8,755 nt of DNA, taken from a virus. Lineage: Duplodnaviria > Heunggongvirae > Uroviricota > Caudoviricetes. Location: positions 1-8,755 of IMG/VR virus record IMGVR_UViG_2703718800_000013. One strand, given 5' to 3'. The position numbers were made by a program, and so were the translations under genes. The notes under the pieces are model-generated. The model saw nothing but the letters and a program-made list of their open reading frames with translations, had not been told where the DNA came from and did not search any database. This document shows positions 1 through 8,755 of this stretch, in pieces; the stretch's first letter is position 1; every line of letters begins with the position of its first letter.

Positions 1-1
1 C

Positions 2-1024
2 CAGCGCCTGCCCGGTTCGCAGCCGGGCGTGAATGAAACCACCCTGAATGCCATTGCGTATGCACAGGCGGGGCTGTCAGCACAGGAGCATGAACATCTG
101 GCCTGGATCTCCCGGCAGATAATTCCGACAGAAGCTGATGAAGCCGAACTCCTGAAACACTGCGCATTCTGGGGTGTCATCCGTAAACCGGCTTCCCGCG
201 CTGACGGACCGGTACAACTGATGCTGACCACGGATGCAGGGATCACGGAAGGCGTACTCCTTCAGCGAAGCGATGGTGTTGTGTACCGCATCACTGGCTC
301 TGCGACCGGAAAAGCCGGAACACTGAATGTTAATGTGGAGGCGGAAAGTGCGGGGCGCGCCGGAAATACCCCGACCGGAACCCGCCTGTCCTTTATCACA
401 CCACAGGCGGGCATCAACCAGACAGCCACGGTCACCGGCACGGGACTCACCGGTGGTGCGGATGTGGAAACGGTGCCGGAGTTGCTGTCCAGGCTGGTAT
501 TCCGGGTACAGAACCCGCCATCAGGGGGAACACAGTATGATTTTGAACGCTGGGCACGGGAAGTACCTGGCGTGACGCGGGCATGGTGTAAGCCTGAATG
601 GCCTGAGGCTGGTAGTGTTGGTGTGACTTTTGTTCAGGATAATAACCCTGACATTTTCCCCGGGGAAGGTGATGTGAAGCGGGTGGCGGATTATATCCGC
701 AGTCATGATGATCCGGCGACGGGCCAGCCCGTTGGTCAGCCACTTGGGCCGACAATCAGCGTGTTTAAGCTGACCAATAAGCCGGTGGTGTTTGAGATAA
801 GGATTGTACCCAAAACGCCGGAAAATCAGGCTGCCGTAAAACAGGCATTAACGGACCTGCTTTATAACGAATCGCGGCCGGGTGGACTTGTATTGCCTTC
901 ATCATTCTGGCGGGCTGTTGCAGGGGTGAAAGGACTGGAGGATTTTGAAGTTCGCAGCCCGCTGAAGTCCGTGATGGCCGGAGATACAGAGTTGCTGACC
1001 GTGGGGGAAATCACATGGCTGTAA
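2..1024 (+). CDS. Baseplate J-like protein (Mu gp47 / P2 gpJ family), probably 5'-partial
   Basis: Long ORF ending TAA at 1022-1024. The first in-window start is GTG at 29, but the frame stays open back to position 2, so the true start may lie upstream of the window. Family assignment rests mainly on gene order (immediately upstream of a DUF2313-like gene and the tail fibre) plus recalled resemblance; not verified by search. Confidence 0.6.
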   Translation, partial: QRLPGSQPGVNETTLNAIAYAQAGLSAQEHEHLAWISRQIIPTEADEAELLKHCAFWGVIRKPASRADGPVQLMLTTDAGITEGVLLQRSDGVVYRITGSATGKAGTLNVNVEAESAGRAGNTPTGTRLSFITPQAGINQTATVTGTGLTGGADVETVPELLSRLVFRVQNPPSGGTQYDFERWAREVPGVTRAWCKPEWPEAGSVGVTFVQDNNPDIFPGEGDVKRVADYIRSHDDPATGQPVGQPLGPTISVFKLTNKPVVFEIRIVPKTPENQAAVKQALTDLLYNESRPGGLVLPSSFWRAVAGVKGLEDFEVRSPLKSVMAGDTELLTVGEITWL

Positions 1025-1572
1025 CCCTGACCCCGCATCAGCGCGCCCTGTTGCAGTTGCTGCCTGACGGGCTGGTATGGGATAAGCGGCCGTCATCCGT
1101 TCTTGCGGCTTTGTGCCTGGGCCTCAGTCATTCCACGGAGCGTGTTTCCTGGACCGGCAACCAGATGCTGGCAGAACGTTTTCCTGATTCATCCCGTCTG
1201 CTGCTGGAAGACTGGGAGCGTTATCTGGGGTTACCGGAATGTGATATGACCGGCGCAACCATTCAGGAGCGTCAGCGTTATGCCGGGAATAAATACCGGA
1301 TGAAACCCTCTCTTAACCGTGAATTTTATATCCGGTTTGCGGCAGAGTTTGGTTATGAAATAGATATCCAGCCATCACCGGAATCACAATGGATCAGTAT
1401 TGTGACAGTGAAGACAGCGGTTGGATACCGTCACATGAATGTACTGGACGATATTCTTACGCCACTGCGAATTTATGATGCAAGTGCGCTGGAGTGCATT
1501 TTAAACCGTTATAAGCCAGCCTGGCAGACGTTTTTATATCTGTACGAAAACAGTCATGAGGAGACGGAGTGA
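1015..1572 (+). CDS. Phage tail/baseplate protein, Mu gp48 / YmfQ-like (DUF2313 family)
   Basis: 185-aa ORF. Its ATG at 1015 overlaps the upstream stop (ATGGCTGTAA), suggesting translational coupling. Size and position between the baseplate J-like gene and the tail fibre match the Mu-type late operon. Confidence 0.6.
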   Translation: MAVTLTPHQRALLQLLPDGLVWDKRPSSVLAALCLGLSHSTERVSWTGNQMLAERFPDSSRLLLEDWERYLGLPECDMTGATIQERQRYAGNKYRMKPSLNREFYIRFAAEFGYEIDIQPSPESQWISIVTVKTAVGYRHMNVLDDILTPLRIYDASALECILNRYKPAWQTFLYLYENSHEETE

Positions 1573-2468
1573 TGTATTTTGTCGACAACAATTCAGGTGT
1601 GACCGATATGCCACCACTGGCCCCCTCACAGGGCACGCAGGTTAAATGGTTTACTGAAGGTGACGGACGCAAAGGGATCAGCCATATAGGTCAGGACTGG
1701 CTGAACATCGTGCAGGCAGAGCTGCTTGCCATTCTGACAGAAGGACAGGTTCAGCCGGATAAGGCAAAACTGAACCAGCTGGTGATAGCCATTAAGGCAA
1801 TCATTGCAGCAAACGCATACAGCCGGAAAAACAACCTTAAGGAGATTGCGGATGCAGGTGCAGAAGCACAGGCTGCTGCCCGCCGTCATCTTGGGCTTGG
1901 AGGATTATCAGGAAAAGACAGCCTGGCTGCTAATGATGTGGGAGCACTGGAGAAATCCATGAATTTTGGCGATGTACCGGATAAAACCTCGGCCCGCCAG
2001 AATCTGGATGTTTACAGCAAGAGCGAAGGTGATAACCGTTATCTGCGCAAGGATCAGAATGGCGCGGATATCGCGGACAAAGGAACCTTTATCGATAACG
2101 TCGGTTTACGGGAAACGGTAAATAAGGCGGCGAATGCCCTGCCATCGGACGGCACCGCTGCGGCAGCGAATAAACTCGCCACCCCAAGAAATATTAATGG
2201 TGTTCCTTTCGACGGGACGCAGGATATCAGCATTACTTCAGGGATGACGGAATCAACAGCCAATCAGCGTTATGTTACAGGGGTAAGACTGGGAGCGCAG
2301 GCATTAAGCGGCGGACTGGAATATAATTACTCCCTGTCATCAGGAAATGTGATTACCGGTTTTAAGACTGACGGAGACTGGGAAATGCGTAGTGGTGATG
2401 ACCGTGTTTATTACAGACAGATACAATATTGTATTAATGGGAATTGGGTATCCGCTGCAAGTATTTAA
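1569..2468 (+). CDS. Tail fibre protein (Mu S-like), current orientation; constant N-terminal part plus invertible C-terminal part
   Basis: 299-aa ORF. The likely start is ATG at 1572, preceded by GAGGAG at 1558-1563 (GTG at 1569 is the first in-frame start). The N-terminus (MYFVDNNSGVTDMPPL...WFTEGDG) resembles the conserved phage tail-fibre N-terminal domain. Codon GTC 2100-2102 carries the recombination core, and the C-terminal ~72 aa differ from the alternative cassette on the minus strand. Confidence 0.85.
   Translation: MMYFVDNNSGVTDMPPLAPSQGTQVKWFTEGDGRKGISHIGQDWLNIVQAELLAILTEGQVQPDKAKLNQLVIAIKAIIAANAYSRKNNLKEIADAGAEAQAAARRHLGLGGLSGKDSLAANDVGALEKSMNFGDVPDKTSARQNLDVYSKSEGDNRYLRKDQNGADIADKGTFIDNVGLRETVNKAANALPSDGTAAAANKLATPRNINGVPFDGTQDISITSGMTESTANQRYVTGVRLGAQALSGGLEYNYSLSSGNVITGFKTDGDWEMRSGDDRVYYRQIQYCINGNWVSAASI
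2089..2114. promoter_or_regulatory. Left crossover site for the DNA invertase (gix/hix-like 26-bp site)
   Basis: TTATCGATAACG-TC-GGTTTACGGGAA: two imperfect 12-bp half-sites around the core dinucleotide TC (2101-2102). It resembles recalled hix/gix sites, and inverted-repeat identity begins exactly at the core. Confidence 0.7.
2101..2249. repeat. Left arm of a perfect 149-bp inverted repeat flanking the invertible segment
   Basis: The reverse complement of 3379-3527 matches 2101-2249 in every block I compared by hand. The mirror-image ORFs in the track (2054..2263 minus and 3395..3580 plus share a 44-aa identical stretch) are a direct consequence. Confidence 0.95.
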
Positions 2469-2567
2469 TTAACGGCTCATGGCGTACGGCAGGCAGCGCC
2501 TGATATATGTGTTATCTCAGACAATCCCTGTCCGTATATAGCGATAGTATTATTCCTGTTTTTATCA

Positions 2568-3110
2568 TTGATTCACATGGTGATGTTTATGCAACTGATT
2601 AATGTTAAACGATATTACCCGGAAAACACCCTCTATGGTAATGATGTACAGTATTTTCAGAGTGAAGATGGTAAGGATTTCTACGAGTCCCTGCCATTAT
2701 TCACCAAAAAATATAAACTTTGTATAACACCTGACAGCGGCATTATCTGCTCAATATCACAGGACGCTTCGGCGCTGTATCCTGCGGGGTTCTCTGTGGT
2801 TGAAGTCGACGAACTCCCTGAAGGTGCTGATATTTCGGGTAACTGGAAGTTTGATAATGGCGTGATCTCCCGTATTCCGGTTAACTACGCAAGAAAACTG
2901 GAAGCAATGCGCCAGTTATATCTTAATCAGGCATATGAAAAAATTAATGACTGGAGAACAGAATTACAGCTGGGCACCATCAGTGATGAAGACAGAGCCG
3001 CACTTACCCGATGGATGGCATACATCAGTCAGGTGAAAAAAATGGAACCATCCGCCATTAAAACTGAAGCTGAATTTGATGCCATTAAATGGCCCGAACA
3101 GCCTGAATAA
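2568..3110 (+). CDS. Tail fibre assembly protein (Mu U / Tfa family chaperone)
   Basis: 180-aa ORF with several possible starts (TTG 2568; ATG 2577, 2583, 2589). Blocks SEDGKDFYE, DASALYPAGFSVVEV and a C-terminal WPEQPE match the recalled pattern of Mu U/Tfa proteins. Confidence 0.8.
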   Translation: MIHMVMFMQLINVKRYYPENTLYGNDVQYFQSEDGKDFYESLPLFTKKYKLCITPDSGIICSISQDASALYPAGFSVVEVDELPEGADISGNWKFDNGVISRIPVNYARKLEAMRQLYLNQAYEKINDWRTELQLGTISDEDRAALTRWMAYISQVKKMEPSAIKTEAEFDAIKWPEQPE

Positions 3111-3113
3111 CTT

Positions 3114-3143
3114 AAAGGGTGCTTATCGCACCCTTTTTCTTTC
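3114..3143. terminator. Intrinsic terminator between tfa and the minus-strand cassette, possibly bidirectional
   Basis: AAAGGGTGC (3114-3122), loop TTATC, GCACCCTTT (3128-3136), then TTTTTCTTTC on the + strand. It sits 3 bp after the tfa stop and ends just before the minus-strand cassette stop at 3145-3147. Confidence 0.6.
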
Positions 3144-3144
3144 A

Positions 3145-3527
3145 TCAGACAGATGAAACTGTACGCCATGCATTACTGATATATATCTGCACAGGACGGA
3201 AATAAACCCCGCCAATGTTATCGGCAGAGTTTTTTCCTGTTTCCTGCACGTTAATACCGGAAAGCATACAACCGGAAGGCGCACTGTAATTCCATGACAT
3301 TTCATTGCCTCCGGGTGAATGATAGCTCTGTGCTCCAAGCTGAACGTTCTGTACATACCGGTCATCTGCGGTTGACTGCGTCATCCCTGAAGTAATGCTG
3401 ATATCCTGCGTCCCGTCGAAAGGAACACCATTAATATTTCTTGGGGTGGCGAGTTTATTCGCTGCCGCAGCGGTGCCGTCCGATGGCAGGGCATTCGCCG
3501 CCTTATTTACCGTTTCCCGTAAACCGA
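3145..3527 (-). CDS. Alternative tail-fibre C-terminal cassette (Sv'-like), silent in this orientation
   Basis: The minus-strand frame is open from the core at 3526-3527 through the inverted repeat (encoding the same 49 aa as the + copy) into a distinct ~77-aa C-terminus (MTQSTADDRYVQNVQLGAQ...), which parallels the + copy (MTESTANQRYVTGVRLGAQ...). It has no start codon or RBS of its own at its 5' end. Confidence 0.75.
3379..3527. repeat. Right arm of the perfect 149-bp inverted repeat
   Basis: Reverse complement of 2101-2249. Confidence 0.95.
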
Positions 3528-3539
3528 GGTTTCAGGGAT
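3514..3539. promoter_or_regulatory. Right crossover site for the DNA invertase (gix/hix-like)
   Basis: TTCCCGTAAACC-GA-GGTTTCAGGGAT, with core GA (3526-3527) that is the inverse of the left-site core TC. The inner half-site equals the reverse complement of the left site's inner half-site. It lies directly upstream of the invertase gene, as gixR does relative to gin. Confidence 0.7.
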
Positions 3540-3593
3540 GCCGTATATCTGCTTTAAAAGGCCTTTCCACCTCTTTTTAAGGAAGGTAAATAC

Positions 3594-4154
3594 ATGCTGA
3601 TTGGCTATATACGCGTATCAACAAATGACCAGAACACAGGTTTACAAAGAAATGCGCTGGAATGTGCAGGATGTGAGCAGATTTTTGAAGATAAAATGAG
3701 CGGAAAAACAACACAGCGGCCGGGACTGAAGCGGGCACTGAAGAAACTAAAACCCGGTGACACGCTGATGGTCTGGAAACTGGACAGGCTGGGGCGCAGT
3801 ATGCGCCACCTTGTTGCGCTGACAGATGAATTACAGCAACAGGGGATAAATTTTCGTAGTCTTACTGACAGCATTGATACGTCAACCCCCATGGGGCGCT
3901 TCTTTTTTCACATAATGGGTGCGCTGGCAGAAATGGAGCGTGAATTGATTGTCGAACGGACACGGGCTGGTCTTGCAGCTGCCCGTGAAAGGGGACGAAC
4001 CGGCGGCAGACCCCGTCGTCTCACGCAGGAACAATACGAGCAGGTCGGGCGTTTACTGGCCGGGGGTGTCAGCCGAAGACAGGCGGCACTTATTTTTGAT
4101 ATCGGCCTTTCAACCCTTTATCGTTATTTTCCTGCGAGCGTTTCGGAAAAATAA
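3594..4154 (+). CDS. gin: Serine-recombinase DNA invertase (Gin/Pin/Cin/Hin family)
   Basis: 186-aa ORF with RBS AAGGAAGG upstream. The N-terminus MLIGYIRVSTNDQNT carries the catalytic Ser, and a C-terminal helix-turn-helix region is present. The protein is near-collinear with Mu Gin as I recall it, and its position next to the invertible segment fits. Confidence 0.95.
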   Translation: MLIGYIRVSTNDQNTGLQRNALECAGCEQIFEDKMSGKTTQRPGLKRALKKLKPGDTLMVWKLDRLGRSMRHLVALTDELQQQGINFRSLTDSIDTSTPMGRFFFHIMGALAEMERELIVERTRAGLAAARERGRTGGRPRRLTQEQYEQVGRLLAGGVSRRQAALIFDIGLSTLYRYFPASVSEK

Positions 4155-4244
4155 GACGCTCCCTTTGTTGGGCCTTTACTGAATTAACGCAAAATGGCGT
4201 TTATCGGTCTGTGGATATGATAATTCTGTTTATTCAGGAACAGG

Positions 4245-6326
4245 ATGAATATTATGACGTCCAAATGGGTTCAACTATCATCAATGCCCGGAAACTTTAC
4301 CGTTAAAGTTTCCGGTGGTACAGCGGCATTTCTTGAGGCTCCCTTTCCTCCGGCTGAAACGAAAGGAGGTATGACATTTGCTGACTGTCTCATCAGTTTT
4401 AATACACGGGATTGCCTGTGGGTAAGGCCAGTATCCGGTGATCCGAACGTGGAAATTACCGGAGCGGGTATTGGTGCTGTCATTCCGTTAAGTGCTGATG
4501 TTGCCGGTACTACTGAACCGTCAGACTGGAACAATGCGGAAACATACACTTCCTCAGCAGGAGATAAAGTTGCAGGTCAAACTCCGTCCTGGTATTACGT
4601 GGTTGTTATTGCTGGTCAGTCGAATGCATCGTCATTTGGTGAAGGTCTTCCTTTGCCTGATACCTATGATCGACCTGATCCACGTATTAAACAGCTGGCT
4701 CGCCGTAACACGGTTACACCTGGCGGGGTTGAATGCGCCTACAACGATATAATTCCGGCAGATCACTGTCTTCATGATGTGCTGGATATGAGTAACCATA
4801 ATCATCCAAAAGCAGATCTTTCAAAAGGTCAGTATGGTTGTGTCGGCCAGGGTTTGCATATTGCAAAAAAACTCCTGCCCTTTATCCCGGAAGAGGCTGG
4901 TATCCTTCTGGTTCCCTGTGCCAGAGGAGGCTCTGCATTTACCGATGGTGCTGATGGTGAATTTACTGAAGCTTCCGGAGCAACATCTGCATCATCGCGC
5001 TGGGGAGTCAATAAACCTTTGTTCAGCGATCTTGTTAACCGAACAAAAGCGGCTCTCAGCAGTAACCCCAGAAATATTCTCCTGTCCGTTGTCTGGATGC
5101 AGGGCGAGAATGATCTGAAAACAGGAAAACATGCTGAACATTCCGGTCTGTTTGTGACGATGGTCGAAACATTCAGGCGTGAACTTTCGGCTTTTTCTGC
5201 GCAATCTCCAGCCGGAGATATGGCTTCTGTACCGTGGATCTGTGGTGATACGACGTATTACTGGAAAAATACATATCCAGAACAATACAAAGCTGTTTAT
5301 GGCAAATATGCTAATGAAGCAAAGAACATTCACTTTGTTCCATTTGTTGTGGATGAAAATGGAAAAAATGTACCGACAAATAATCCAGATGAAGACCCGG
5401 ATATTCCAGGTATTGGCTATTATGGTGCCATAAGTCGCGATTCGACTAACTGGACATCAAACGACAGGGCAAGCCATTTCAGTTCATGGGCGCGCCGTGG
5501 AATTATTTCAGACCGTCTGGCAACAGCGATTCTGACATTGTCAGGACAAAAATCTGCTTTCTTCCGCGGTGTAACGGCAACAGAACATTCTGATACCGGT
5601 AAGAGTGAGCCTGAACCCACCGGGGATGTGAAGGACGTGAGCGATCAGATGAAGATCATCGTTTCGTATACTGCAAACGCCCCGACAGAACCAATGAAAG
5701 ATCAGGGGTGGAATGCGGCTTCCGGAAAAGCAACCTTTGTCACGGATGCTGCTGCAACAGGTGGTAACAAAGCGTTAAGGGTGAATAAAGCGCCTAACAG
5801 CATGGCCTCATGGAAAATGTATCATCCGATCACAGCTGATAATGCCAGGGATTTGTTCGCCAGAGGTGGTGATATTTCCCTCCGTTTCAAAATTCCATCG
5901 GATGCGGGCATTGCGGAAAACCGGTATGGTGTTGGTATTTACTGGGCTGTAAGTAACTGGCCTGACGGTGACGGAAAAAATAACCTCATCGCATCATGTT
6001 TCCTGCAAACGGATTCAGCTAACCTGAATGTGATGTATCACAAAGGGAGCGGAAGTCAACAGATAGGATCGTATGGTGTCTTTGATCATGAATGGCATAC
6101 GCTCTCGTTACGGTTTGCAGGTGGTAATAGCATGAGTGTTACCCCAGTTCTGGACGGGAAAGATGGTGAACCATTTGAACTTGTGAAGTGGGTGAATGCC
6201 GGGTTCACGGTGGATCAACTGACACTGACCGATATTACCGGCAATGCAGCCACTTACCCGATGTTGTTTGACACAATTAAAGTGCAGGTTAACGATGCGG
6301 TCTCTTCGTCTAATGTGAATAAATGA
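4245..6326 (+). CDS. SASA/SGNH-family carbohydrate esterase (sialate O-acetylesterase-like; NanS-p-like) with an N-terminal extension and a C-terminal lectin-like domain
   Basis: 693-aa ORF. The GQSN nucleophile motif is encoded at nt 4614-4625, a QGEND block at about 5099-5113, and a downstream D-x3-H (SNDRASHF) follows, the three signature blocks of SASA-type esterases. The ~250-aa C-terminal region looks like a beta-sandwich carbohydrate-binding domain (inference). An alternative start is ATG at 4254. Confidence 0.75.
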   Translation: MNIMTSKWVQLSSMPGNFTVKVSGGTAAFLEAPFPPAETKGGMTFADCLISFNTRDCLWVRPVSGDPNVEITGAGIGAVIPLSADVAGTTEPSDWNNAETYTSSAGDKVAGQTPSWYYVVVIAGQSNASSFGEGLPLPDTYDRPDPRIKQLARRNTVTPGGVECAYNDIIPADHCLHDVLDMSNHNHPKADLSKGQYGCVGQGLHIAKKLLPFIPEEAGILLVPCARGGSAFTDGADGEFTEASGATSASSRWGVNKPLFSDLVNRTKAALSSNPRNILLSVVWMQGENDLKTGKHAEHSGLFVTMVETFRRELSAFSAQSPAGDMASVPWICGDTTYYWKNTYPEQYKAVYGKYANEAKNIHFVPFVVDENGKNVPTNNPDEDPDIPGIGYYGAISRDSTNWTSNDRASHFSSWARRGIISDRLATAILTLSGQKSAFFRGVTATEHSDTGKSEPEPTGDVKDVSDQMKIIVSYTANAPTEPMKDQGWNAASGKATFVTDAAATGGNKALRVNKAPNSMASWKMYHPITADNARDLFARGGDISLRFKIPSDAGIAENRYGVGIYWAVSNWPDGDGKNNLIASCFLQTDSANLNVMYHKGSGSQQIGSYGVFDHEWHTLSLRFAGGNSMSVTPVLDGKDGEPFELVKWVNAGFTVDQLTLTDITGNAATYPMLFDTIKVQVNDAVSSSNVNK

Positions 6327-6355
6327 CGGGTAATTCATTTTATTTAAAATGGTGA

Positions 6356-6541
6356 GTGATTATGCCAATACTACATACATTTATGCTTTATTTTTGCACG
6401 TGTGTGTGTCTGCTTTATCTCCTCAGCGGAGGTTACAAAATTATCCGAAATTATTTTCGAAATAAAATTGATGCAGCCGCAGAGGAAAAGATAAAAAGCG
6501 GTGCTGTAATGCCGCAGCCGAAAGACTCCGGTCAGATTTAA
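6356..6541 (+). CDS. Hypothetical small protein with a hydrophobic N-terminus (questionable)
   Basis: 61-aa ORF in an A+T-rich intergenic-looking stretch with a weak RBS. The hydrophobic N-terminal 25 aa might be a membrane helix, but this could equally be a non-coding leader or promoter region. Confidence 0.25.
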   Translation: MIMPILHTFMLYFCTCVCLLYLLSGGYKIIRNYFRNKIDAAAEEKIKSGAVMPQPKDSGQI

Positions 6542-6576
6542 TTTTTTGTGAACCAGAAAAGGAAAGGAGAATATTC

Positions 6577-6822
6577 ATGCCAGAGATTAAAGGCACGGTT
6601 ACTGAAGAGCTTGTCAAACAGGCACTTTATTCTGAAGAAGTGAACCGCGTGCTGAAGGCGCAGGTTCGCAAGGATTTTGAGGCACAAATCGACGCATATG
6701 TTGATGAAGTGCTGGCCCGAATGGTTGGCCATTCTCCGGCTGAAAACAGCACGGAGAATGAGCCTCAGCCCGTAGAGCAACCAGAGCCGGTTCAGCCCGG
6801 AACTGACAGTGCCATGATGTAA
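6577..6822 (+). CDS. Hypothetical small acidic protein
   Basis: 81-aa ORF with a strong RBS (AAAGGAAAGGAGA, 7 nt before the ATG). It has a helical-looking N-terminal half and a Pro/Glu-rich tail. I do not recognise a family. Confidence 0.55.
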   Translation: MPEIKGTVTEELVKQALYSEEVNRVLKAQVRKDFEAQIDAYVDEVLARMVGHSPAENSTENEPQPVEQPEPVQPGTDSAMM

Positions 6823-6896
6823 CAATACAAACCGACAGCTTCTCCTGTCGGTTTGATTTTCATGGGCGATGTATATACCAGTCAGAGGAAATAATC

Positions 6897-7097
6897 ATGG
6901 ACAAGAACAAAAAGCAGCCCGATACCAAAGGTCTGGAAATATTAAGCGCAGAAATTATCAATGCGCTACGTTCAGGACTTGATGAAAATACATTACAGGA
7001 TCGAAACTTCACCACTGCAATGTGGATAGCGATGCAGATCCTGTGTACCCCAAGATGCGCTATTTTTGCGGTTCGTGAGGGTCAGTTGACTCGCTGA
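6897..7097 (+). CDS. Hypothetical small protein
   Basis: 66-aa ORF with RBS GAGGAA 7 nt upstream. No family recognised. Confidence 0.5.
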   Translation: MDKNKKQPDTKGLEILSAEIINALRSGLDENTLQDRNFTTAMWIAMQILCTPRCAIFAVREGQLTR

Positions 7098-7266
7098 TTG
7101 CCCGAATTACATCAGAAAAGCACGCGTTCCATAATTGCATAGCTGATGAATCACCAGCTGTATGAAAAGAGGTAAAGACACAACTGGTGGATGTCATTGC
7201 TGCAATTGTGATATCAGCTGCAATTCGCGCAGCCTGTAACTTTTGGTCGGTGGTCAGTTTATCCAT
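7060..7266 (-). CDS. Hypothetical small protein, convergent with and overlapping the 3' end of the 6897..7097 ORF
   Basis: The ORF track gives 7060..7290; an internal ATG at 7266 has a much better RBS (AGGAGAAA). Codon usage looks plausible, but no family is recognised and a + strand terminator downstream implies antisense read-through. Confidence 0.35.
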   Translation of the reverse strand: MDKLTTDQKLQAARIAADITIAAMTSTSCVFTSFHTAGDSSAMQLWNACFSDVIRAISESTDPHEPQK

Positions 7267-7380
7267 TTTCTCCTGCCTGAACAGATGCATCTCTGCTTTA
7301 CAGGAGGCCGGGGAATATCATAGGATACACCACGAGCTCAGAGTGAAGCATTGATGCAGTTTTTTACAGATTGACCCAGA

Positions 7381-7417
7381 ACCCAGCATAGTTCCAGCTA
7401 TGCTGGGTTTCCCTTTT
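7381..7417 (+). terminator. Rho-independent terminator (+ strand)
   Basis: Perfect 11-bp stem ACCCAGCATAG (7381-7391) / CTATGCTGGGT (7398-7408) with loop TTCCAG, followed by TTCCCTTTTAT. Confidence 0.55.
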
Positions 7418-7640
7418 ATGTAGTATCCTGTTGATTTGAAACATACTACATATACGCGCGATCCTACCTTCACTGGATAAAAAGGCAATAAAATGATCAT
7501 TTTATGATCGTTTTCACCACCTAACTCTTCGTTTTCTTTAAGTAAATAATCACCGCCCTGAATCATTGTTGATGACTTTTCAATCTATTTGTTGTATCAA
7601 TTAAACAAATCGAATCGATCGTTTTTGTCGATCGATTGCA
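7418..7640. promoter_or_regulatory. Candidate com-mom regulatory region with palindromes and clustered GATC sites
   Basis: A 9-bp inverted repeat ATGTAGTAT (7418-7426) / ATACTACAT (7443-7451). Five GATC sites at 7460, 7495, 7506, 7617 and 7630. A second palindrome AATCGATCG (7612-7620) / CGATCGATT (7628-7636) embeds two of them. A weak possible promoter is ATGACT (7573-7578), 16 bp, TATCAA (7595-7600). Confidence 0.4.
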
Positions 7641-7680
7641 TGAGAAAGGCATCAACAACAAAGCAGGAGGTTATGCGGCC

Positions 7681-7881
7681 ATGTATCGAAACATACGGTG
7701 CCGACACTGCAATAAGCTACTGGCACGGGCCAGTTTCAGTTATCTGGAAGTAAAATGTCCGCGCTGTAAAACCCTCAATCAAATCACATCTCCGAGCGCC
7801 ACAGAGCACCCCACATACACAAGGAAATCCTGTCGTGGGGAACAGAAAGCAAGTCACATCCCGTATCATCAGCACGCCTGA
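7681..7881 (+). CDS. com: Com, zinc-finger translational activator of mom
   Basis: 66-aa product [14 protein letters not shown]...KCPRCK with CxxC-x15-CxxC spacing like Mu Com. AGGAGG at 7665-7670 precedes the ATG at 7681; the track start at 7636 lacks an RBS. The 3' end overlaps the mom start. Confidence 0.8.
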
Positions 7882-8572
7882 ACTTATTCGCTATAACGAC
7901 AATATCGTTGGTTATGGCTCCCGTGAGTTGCGGGTTGAGACAATAAGTTGCTGGCTGGCCAGACTGGTCATCGTCAATAAACATTACAGCCACCGTTTCG
8001 TAAATAACTCCTACCTTCATCTGGGCATATTTTCAGAACGGGAACTTGTTGGCGTAATGCAATGGGGTTACGCCCTTAACCCAAACAGTGGTGCACGCGT
8101 CGTAACGGGTACGCAGAACCGAGAATATATGGAGCTTAACCGGCTATGGCTGCATGACTGTATGCCGAGAAACTCCGAATCAAGGGCAATCAGTTACGCG
8201 CTCAAGCTAATCAGGCAGCTTTATCCGCAGGTACAGTGGGTTCAGTCGTTTGCAGATGAGCGTTGTGGCTGTCTTGGTGTCGTGTATCAGGCAAGCAATT
8301 TTGATTATGTAGGCAGCCATGAAACAATATTCTATGAACTTGATGGCGAGTGGTATCACGAGATTTGCAGGAATGCCATTAAACGAGGCGGACAACGAGG
8401 TGAACATCTGAGGGCTAATATCGACAGAGCCAGTGTGCATAAGTTCCGACAGTTTCGTTACATCCGGTTTCTGAACAAGAGGGCCAGAAAACGCCTCAAC
8501 ACAAAGCTATTCAAAGTCCAGCCTTACCCAAAACCACAAACAGTTAAAACTGGTTTGAAAGAGAGTGAATGA
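7835..8572 (+). CDS. mom: Mom, DNA modification (adenine carbamoylmethylation) anti-restriction protein
   Basis: 245-aa ORF starting at GTG 7835, inside the 3' end of com in another frame; this is the com-mom arrangement of Mu. Its size and its position at the phage right end fit. The exact start codon is uncertain. Confidence 0.8.
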
Positions 8573-8602
8573 GCGCTTAAAAACTCATTCTAAAACTCAA
8601 AA

Positions 8603-8649
8603 GAAAAGCGCCGATTTAGTATCAAATAAGTTGCGTATCGGCGTTTTTC
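8603..8649. repeat. 13-bp imperfect inverted repeat downstream of mom (terminator-like or protein-binding)
   Basis: GAAAAGCGCCGAT (8603-8615) pairs with ATCGGCGTTTTTC (8637-8649) with one G-U equivalent, across a 21-nt spacer. It may be the mom terminator or paired end-binding sites. Confidence 0.3.
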
Positions 8650-8755
8650 ATCGGAATCAAATGAAATGCAAATCGGTATCAAAAAAATCGCCGCGCTATA
8701 TGATGCTTTGTTCCGTAGGGCAACATTACCCCGGTTTTGAAACGGATATTCACGG

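Follow-up and report, generated by a model that had tools for sequence, protein, structure and literature searches.

We analysed a window of 8,755 nucleotides (nt) from a virus of the Caudoviricetes (positions 1 to 8,755 of IMG/VR record IMGVR_UViG_2703718800_000013) and describe a gene at positions 4245–6326 that probably encodes a functional sialate 9-O-acetylesterase of the NanS-p class. The predicted protein consists of three modules, an N-terminal domain, an SGNH hydrolase domain and a lectin-like domain, joined by disordered linkers, and its gene lies in a cassette of a Mu-like prophage. A known enzyme class is here combined, in a different phage family, with a different, uncharacterised N-terminal module, and sequence comparisons give clear evidence for shuffling of the enzyme part behind N-modules that are specific to the phage. 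The parts of the gene and protein are as follows.

4245–6326, + strand: predicted NanS-p-class sialate O-acetylesterase gene, 693 amino acids (aa), an uninterrupted open reading frame (ORF) with an ATG start.
4266–4490, + strand: N-terminal all-beta domain, residues 8–82, in place of the DUF1737 capsid anchor of lambdoid NanS-p.
4491–4580, + strand: linker 1, residues 83–112, rich in Ser, Thr, Gly and Ala and predicted to be disordered; a mosaic breakpoint lies at its start.
4581–5549, + strand: SGNH type II (SASA) catalytic domain, residues 113–435, delimited by the NanS alignment, Foldseek and invariant residues.
4620–4622, + strand: Ser126, predicted nucleophile in the GQSN block, by correspondence with NanS.
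5475–5477, + strand: His411, predicted base in the RASH block, by correspondence with NanS.
5550–5648, + strand: linker 2, residues 436–468, predicted to be disordered; relatives do not align here.
5649–6305, + strand: C-terminal jelly-roll, lectin-like domain (DUF6645), residues 469–687, a rare allele.

The frame of 693 codons and the E-values of its matches lie far above chance expectation. A second in-frame ATG is found at 4254, and an AGGA-like sequence precedes both starts; RefSeq places the start of the identical gene at 4245 and that of the O157:H7 homologue at the equivalent of Met4. Four complete E. coli genomes have an annotated gene identical to this one, and the protein already carries the database labels 'sialate O-acetylesterase' or 'DUF6645 domain-containing protein'. 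In PHROGs, residues 65–687 match phrog_143 (867 bits), a family of unknown function. The first-pass annotation of this DNA, made from the sequence alone, had placed the gene product among the SASA-type SGNH esterases, likened it to NanS-p and described an N-terminal extension and a C-terminal beta-sandwich. Two solved structures that match in sequence, together with the predicted folds, support that assignment; the ORF is uninterrupted, the blocks GQSN (124–127), QGEND (286–290) and DRASH (407–411) are all present, and the layout stands: the extension measures about 112 aa, the catalytic core spans 113–435 and the beta-sandwich about 469–687.

A SASA profile search and a superposition on NanS had been proposed as checks of the esterase assignment, and both agree with it. 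The Pfam SASA profile (PF03629) matches residues 119–316 (E = 3.9e-12; 46.7 bits, the cutoff being 24.8), residues 113–431 match E. coli NanS (YjhS, PDB 3pt5) with E = 7.7e-114, and the predicted model superposes on 3pt5 in Foldseek with a template modelling (TM) score of 0.82 and 55% identity across 320 aligned columns. In an alignment of 15 diverse relatives, Q125, S126, N127, G287, E288, D290, R408 and H411 are invariant, the Asn of QGEND varies, and D407 of DRASH is replaced by Ser or Gln in some relatives and by Leu in NanS. NanS belongs to the SGNH type II enzymes; its catalytic residues are Ser19 and His301, Gln18 is part of the oxyanion hole, and a catalytic Asp is lacking (PMC9063846). 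RSSH or RASH forms the final conserved block in both NanS and NanS-p (PMC10462455). As NanS works with a Ser-His dyad lacking the Asp, and as the Asp of the block is variable, the 'D-x3-H' string that had been named as a family block is a coincidence of this allele; we rejected it as a motif in favour of R-[A/S]-S-H with its invariant His. The protein contains no D-x-x-H string, and a conserved catalytic Asp two or three residues before the His, the mark of the classical SGNH Ser-His-Asp triad, is lacking. Hydrolysis of the O-acetyl ester would proceed with Ser126 as nucleophile, His411 as base and an oxyanion hole formed by Gln125 and a backbone Gly, that is, by a NanS-type Ser-His dyad that would not use a catalytic Asp.

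The protein shares the SGNH type II fold, the Ser/His dyad, the oxyanion Gln and the R-x-S-H block with chromosomal NanS. It differs in its architecture: NanS has about 326 aa and a single domain, whereas the window protein has an additional N-terminal module, two linkers and a lectin-like C-terminal domain, and lacks an export signal. NanS is exported. No export signal is apparent in the window protein, and its N-terminus is without a hydrophobic stretch (maximum Kyte-Doolittle 19-mer 1.36, within the beta domain). In the alignment, a lambdoid, DUF1737-type esterase of 730 aa (P0070) has about 86 aa inserted internally, and these duplicate the catalytic-domain sequence that precedes them (…DRASHFSSWARR…GYYGSKWR…); by its sequence the insertion looks like a tandem duplication within the esterase domain.

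The C-terminal domain resembles that of a characterised phage esterase. Pfam DUF6645 (PF20350) matches residues 540–647 above its cutoff (E = 1.5e-32), residues 472–683 match the crystallised C-terminal domain of the NanS-p of phage phi24B (PDB 6yp6, E = 2.6e-51), and the model of the domain superposes on 6yp6 in Foldseek with a TM score of 0.88. The next-best folds are the sialic-acid-binding lectin domain of the V. cholerae sialidase (2w68, E = 1.5e-8), lectin domains of Akkermansia sialidases and calreticulin-type lectins. The CBM40-type domain of the V. cholerae sialidase (2w68/1kit) shares the concanavalin-like beta-sandwich (TM score 0.65–0.76) at an identity of 15–18%, a likeness at the level of the fold alone. 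The proposed glycan-binding aromatics of vb_24B_21 (Y510, Y515, Y540 and F611) map to Y561, Y566, F586 and F654, so that three of the four are kept and the fourth has changed from Tyr to Phe. To judge from these models, the C-terminal domain most likely binds glycan through its jelly-roll, and would in this way target the enzyme to glycans and hold it on sialylated mucin. It is the fastest-diverging part of the esterase, and the allele carried in the window is present in 4 of 5426 complete E. coli genomes. In the full-length AlphaFold2 model, disordered linkers at about 74–111 and 435–468 (predicted local distance difference test score, pLDDT, below 50) lie between three folded parts. Inspection of the linkers by eye revealed no SSP-type autoprocessing motifs of the kind reported for the linkers of phi24B gp84.

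The N-terminal domain is unrelated to that of lambdoid NanS-p. An AlphaFold2 model of residues 1–116, built from a seven-sequence alignment, contains a six-stranded all-beta domain at residues 8–82 (pLDDT 86–91) followed by a stretch with pLDDT below 50 (residues 84–116), and 15 positions of the domain are invariant in homologues down to 24% identity. A Pfam search with residues 1–116 gave no match even at E≤10. The first-pass annotation had proposed a search for DUF1737 (PF08410); that domain is absent, and the N-terminus is a different, unclassified domain. PHROG matches do not cover residues 1–64, and a word-indexed protein search with the N-terminus only returned three truncated fragments alone, a full-length query being needed for more. 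An exhaustive HMMER search of 1.84 billion representative sequences with residues 1–116 gave five matches, one of them a fragment from a 26%-identical homologue; because all five are fragments of esterases of the same family or low-complexity sequence, we consider the domain to be without detectable relatives outside the esterase family. Scans of genome contigs with the N-domain alignment and with a distant homologue (P0127) gave no matches. In the protein and HMMER searches the domain is seen fused to NanS-type esterases only. We rejected a remote homology to DUF1737, as hhalign assigns a probability of 0.35% to the alignment of Mu-type N-domains with DUF1737 N-termini, and the predicted all-beta fold contrasts with the one helix and three strands of DUF1737.

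All 41 loci with the N-domain are Mu-like prophages, 40 of an E. coli type (7 from genomes or metagenomes and 33 from IMG/VR) and one of a divergent lineage. The Mu-like context is present in 40/40 E. coli-type loci: gp47, gp48, S, U, (gin), esterase, DUF1378, DUF826, com, and then mom or a DNA methylase. The divergent Mu-like prophage has the same arrangement, with a gp47 that is 77% identical and an N-domain that is 35% identical. The N-domain, as far as these sequences tell, belongs to the Mu-like phage backbone and not to the enzyme. N-domain DNA is present at ≥95% identity in 205 of the 5426 complete E. coli genomes; these copies, in at least 205 genomes, lie outside the scope of surveys of stx flanks such as PMC10462455.

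Comparison of the window with two Mu-like prophages (L002 and L009) in a sliding window revealed a mosaic. Nucleotide identity is 97–100% from gin through the end of the N-domain at nt ~4480, about 70% over linker 1 and the catalytic domain, 32–60% over the C-terminal domain, and about 100% from DUF1378/DUF826 onward; the fall from ~98% to ~70% takes place at 4424–4574. The proteins follow the same pattern: among the window protein, P0005 and P0059, N-domains are 99–100%, catalytic domains 67–69% and C-terminal domains 34–47% identical. As the N-domain is near-identical while the catalytic and C-terminal domains diverge, we conclude that the enzyme part has been exchanged behind a fixed N-module. 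The common Mu-type allele, found in O157:H7 and other E. coli that make Shiga toxin (STEC; 669–679 aa, for example WP_077821849 in L002, Sp18-like), illustrates this. It lies after gin with DUF1378, DUF826 and com on its flank, its flanking DNA is 97–100% and its N-domain 99% identical to the window, and it differs in its catalytic domain (69% identity) and C-terminal domain (47%).

Exchange extends across phage types. The Mu-type protein P0005 and the lambdoid P0070 are 81% identical in the catalytic domain and 78% in the C-terminal domain, and the Mu-type P0047 and the lambdoid P0118 are 78% and 88% identical, whereas the N-modules of Mu-type and lambdoid esterases are at most 25% identical in every case. 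By sequence, then, enzyme parts move across phage types and N-modules do not. A further set of prophages, of an enterobacterial type, carries a near-identical enzyme part on three different N-termini, in a Mu-like prophage (L042), a P2-like prophage (L045) and a myovirus of the E217/DUF2612 type (L044), and in each the esterase gene directly follows tail-fibre, assembly or invertase genes. These three esterases are 705–786 aa long and have an additional C-terminal extension of about 100 aa. L042, L043 and L045 come from the IMG/VR uncultivated virus genome (UViG) set of genome 2744054454, and L044 from 2925820202; in L044 a gene for a Macro-domain protein lies between the tail-fibre and tail-fibre assembly genes. 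In L043 the esterase homologue appears to be interrupted (1267–1516), with a stretch coding for the N-domain in frame upstream of the start of the called ORF; the interruption is a stop codon or a sequencing error between the N-domain and the catalytic domain.

The closest characterised relatives are the lambdoid, DUF1737-type NanS-p proteins. They share with the window protein the SASA catalytic domain (68–72% identity), the DUF6645 jelly-roll (44–49%), the blocks GQSN, G-E-x-D and R-[A/S]-S-H, flexible linkers, the absence of a signal peptide, downstream DUF1378 and DUF826 genes and a location in prophages. They differ at the N-terminus, where they have their own alpha-plus-beta capsid anchor of about 54 aa and the window protein has a non-homologous all-beta domain of about 75 aa, and in their position, which is between Q/stx and the lysis genes in lambdoid phages and between gin and com of a Mu-like transposable myovirus here. 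In the lambdoid phage BP-4795 the order is stx1AB, nanS-p (with DUF1737), DUF1378, holin, and in Stx2a phages genes for DUF826 and DUF1378 lie between nanS-p and S (PMC10462455). Since the esterase is accompanied by the small downstream genes in both Mu-like and lambdoid phages, the cassette is common to two unrelated phage types. The first-pass annotation had called an esterase after gin unexpected. This needs some qualification, as the arrangement recurs in Mu-like prophages of E. coli and Shigella; among the papers searched, however, we found none that names both nanS-p and a Mu-like prophage.

The protein is most likely an active esterase that is released at lysis. It lacks a signal peptide, and its substrate would therefore be reachable only once the phage lyses the cell; after phage-induced lysis it would reach the sialic acids of mucin. 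By analogy with the lambdoid enzymes, we infer that the substrate is 9-O-acetylated N-acetylneuraminic acid (Neu5,9Ac2) on mucin, from which the 9-O-acetyl groups would be removed. The cassette may be expressed with the late genes. Several points weigh against this account and against the importance attached below to the N-domain. Esterase activity on Neu5,9Ac2 and O-acetylated mucin glycans has been shown for lambdoid alleles only (PMC8065619), and the full-length model is moderately confident only (mean pLDDT 66.8). A promoter scan of 3400–8000 found 7 sigma-70-like sites against 7.4 expected from shuffled sequence; Mu C-dependent late promoters were not searched for. The 40 E. coli-type loci are related prophages and are not independent observations. 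A neutral explanation fits the mosaic equally well: recombination needs homology, so a non-homologous 5′ end stays in place regardless of its function. Finally, the phi24B result to which we turn next was published as a preprint, and neither its domain nor its capsid is the one considered here (bioRxiv 10.64898/2026.04.10.717836).

In phi24B, gp84, which is a NanS-p, is an abundant structural protein; its DUF1737 domain attaches as a hexamer to the hexons of the capsid, and self-processing later sets the enzyme free (preprint bioRxiv 10.64898/2026.04.10.717836). By analogy, the N-domain of the window protein may be an adaptor, specific to the phage type, by which the enzyme is held on the Mu-like virion. 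We put this forward tentatively, as the best guess for the domain, because each phage type keeps its own folded N-module ahead of a linker and an exchangeable enzyme. The neutral recombination described above does not account for an N-domain fold that is kept down to 24–35% identity. With slightly more reserve we suggest that NanS-p could be a modular display system of temperate phages of enterobacteria, in which each phage morphotype has its own N-terminal virion anchor with an interchangeable esterase-plus-lectin part behind it; lambdoid capsids would be served by DUF1737, Mu-like virions by the all-beta domain, and P2-like and E217-like myoviruses by further modules. The capsid decoration proteins T4 Hoc and phi24B gp84, which bind glycans of mucus, offer a possible functional analogy, the display of an enzyme or adhesin on the particle through a small anchor domain and a flexible linker. 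The N-domain differs from them in having no sequence or fold relation to Hoc or DUF1737, and virion association is hypothetical here.

If NanS-p is such a display system, the Mu-type N-domain would be a virion-binding module that had not been recognised before, and the surface of Mu-like particles would bear an enzyme that edits mucin. There is nothing unusual about the enzyme as such; it is the pattern of N-modules that makes the question of whether NanS-p is a virion protein, and in which phages, directly testable. Mu-like, P2-like and E217-like prophages carry the same enzyme behind differing phage-specific N-modules, which leads to the prediction that N-modules are morphotype-specific virion adaptors. 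Were this to be true, display of an enzyme on the virion would be a general strategy of temperate coliphages in mucus and not the peculiarity of one podovirus; were it false, the NanS-p repertoire of STEC would still be extended.

An explanation to which we give not quite even chances is that the gene is purely a metabolic moron, whose product is a free, soluble esterase released by a lysing subpopulation that feeds the surviving lysogens by making mucin Neu5,9Ac2 usable. The N-domain would then have no virion role; it might provide additional glycan binding or stability, or be a remnant of evolution. Lambdoid NanS-p has been interpreted in this way in the literature, as a help to the pathogen in feeding on gut mucin: every allele tested is active, brings an advantage in growth on Neu5,9Ac2 and removes O-acetyl groups from mucin glycans (PMC8065619, PMC10462455). 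The missing signal peptide fits it, as does the position of the cassette in a variable cargo region, an interval that spans only 1.5 kb from gin to mom in the prototype-like Mu phage SfMu. The small jelly-roll or cupin-like fold of the N-domain would also suit a carbohydrate-binding module, and recombination limited by homology yields the mosaic without any function of the N-domain. What a metabolic moron leaves unexplained is that each phage type has its own conserved, folded N-module in front of an interchangeable enzyme, and that the lambdoid counterpart at this position is a capsid anchor.

It is unlikely that the protein is instead an enzyme of phage infection that acts on bacterial glycans, de-O-acetylating O-antigen, capsule (for example the O-acetylated polysialic acid of K1) or another surface polysaccharide, and that could aid adsorption if borne on the virion, or exclude superinfection by changing the surface of the lysogen. 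Such a role of NanS-p has been suggested in print (PMC8065619), and the location of the gene directly after a tail-fibre, assembly or invertase module in four myovirus types is in keeping with it, as is the variability of the glycan-binding C-terminal domain, which is expected of host-range determinants. However, a protein without an export signal is unlikely to modify the surface from inside a lysogen, the closest characterised relatives work on host sialoglycans, and the protein shows no beta-helix or other tailspike-like fold, no tail-adaptor N-domain of the tailspike and depolymerase kind and no match to a PHROG 'tail' family. The PADLOC defence models match neither the esterase nor DUF1378, DUF826 or the neighbouring small ORFs. 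We rejected a role of the cassette in defence or superinfection exclusion, as it is without PADLOC or NCBIfam matches. A decaying or inactive passenger of a defective prophage is very improbable: adjoining small ORFs are annotated as frameshifted in related genomes and the frame is interrupted in one distant relative (L043), but the 693-codon frame is intact here and identical in the four complete genomes, every catalytic residue is conserved, the identical gene in strain STEC2018-607 (L001) lies in a full-length Mu-like prophage with a full head-to-tail gene set and a single internal-stop pseudogene, and Sp18 of O157 Sakai, the described Mu-like prophage of this group, was judged intact (PMC2669165).

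The esterase gene makes up a cassette with the DUF1378 and DUF826 genes, which a hairpin follows; the cassette lies in the variable interval from gin to com-mom in a Mu prophage resembling Sp18. Lambdoid Stx phages have these three genes in the same order, between stx and the genes for lysis. The neighbouring features are as follows.

3594–4154, + strand: gin-type DNA invertase (Resolvase and HTH_7 in Pfam; phrog_125, DNA invertase).
6362–6541, + strand: DUF1378 small hydrophobic protein, annotated in L001 and L002; PF07125 in L004–L008.
6577–6822, + strand: DUF826 protein (PF05696, E = 2.9e-15), third gene of the cassette.
6828–6855, readable on both strands: terminator-like hairpin with an 11-bp stem directly after DUF826, a pattern match only.
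7681–8572, + strand: com-mom operon (Mom PF25680, E = 1.4e-77; Com annotated in L001), near the right end of the prophage.

Upstream of the esterase lie genes for Baseplate_J (gp47), Mu Gp48, a tail fibre, a tail-fibre assembly protein, an inverted partial tail fibre and the Gin-type invertase, and with Com and Mom downstream this confirms the Mu-like setting that had been described from the sequence. Of the 40 E. coli-type loci, 35 have DUF826 after the esterase, and the remaining five contigs are rearranged or end earlier. The prophage of L001 is inserted in bcsA. Homology of the window to other Mu-like prophages ends at position 8700, the right end of the prophage, and the last 55 nt are unlike the bcsA flank of L001, so the window derives from another insertion site. 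The insertions of other relatives neighbour ycjN, type VI secretion system genes or ppc, sites that are apparently unrelated, as expected of transposing Mu-like phages.

Adjoining gin is a G-like invertible segment, flanked by a 179-nt inverted repeat (2097–2275 and 3353–3531) that is 95% complementary. It contains one assembly gene, U (2568–3110), and an alternative tail-fibre C-terminus (3145–3384, minus strand). The orientation of the segment varies between the window and related prophages, with U on the + strand in some loci and on the − strand in others. This fits active inversion, and one of the two orientations would place U antisense to the late transcript.

Among relatives, the gin-to-com gap varies most in the stretch between DUF826 and com. 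This stretch contains small ORFs at 6897–7097 (+), 7060–7290 (−) and 7318–7566 (−), none of which has a significant match to a Pfam, NCBIfam or PADLOC family; a marginal PHROG match lies in the 7060–7290 ORF (phrog_25148, E = 1.4e-4, 25 residues). At 7381/7382 the window lacks 72 bp relative to the otherwise 98–99% identical L001 prophage. The site is inside a terminator-like hairpin with a 14-bp stem (7379–7410), and the small unassigned ORFs around it are marked as frameshifted by RefSeq in relatives. Just upstream of com, at 7613–7637, is the palindrome AATCGATCGACAAAAACGATCGATT with two GATC sites, which we take to resemble the Dam-methylation-controlled regulatory region of the Mu mom operon. 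Downstream of com, a C-5 cytosine DNA methylase (PF00145) stands in place of mom in L004–L006 (13792–14844 / 4521–5573) and L042 (13785–14837); the anti-restriction module at the right end is swapped in these loci. Outside the window, RefSeq annotates a 'tRNA-OTHER' on the minus strand of L001 (3155–3242), between the head morphogenesis and virion morphogenesis genes.

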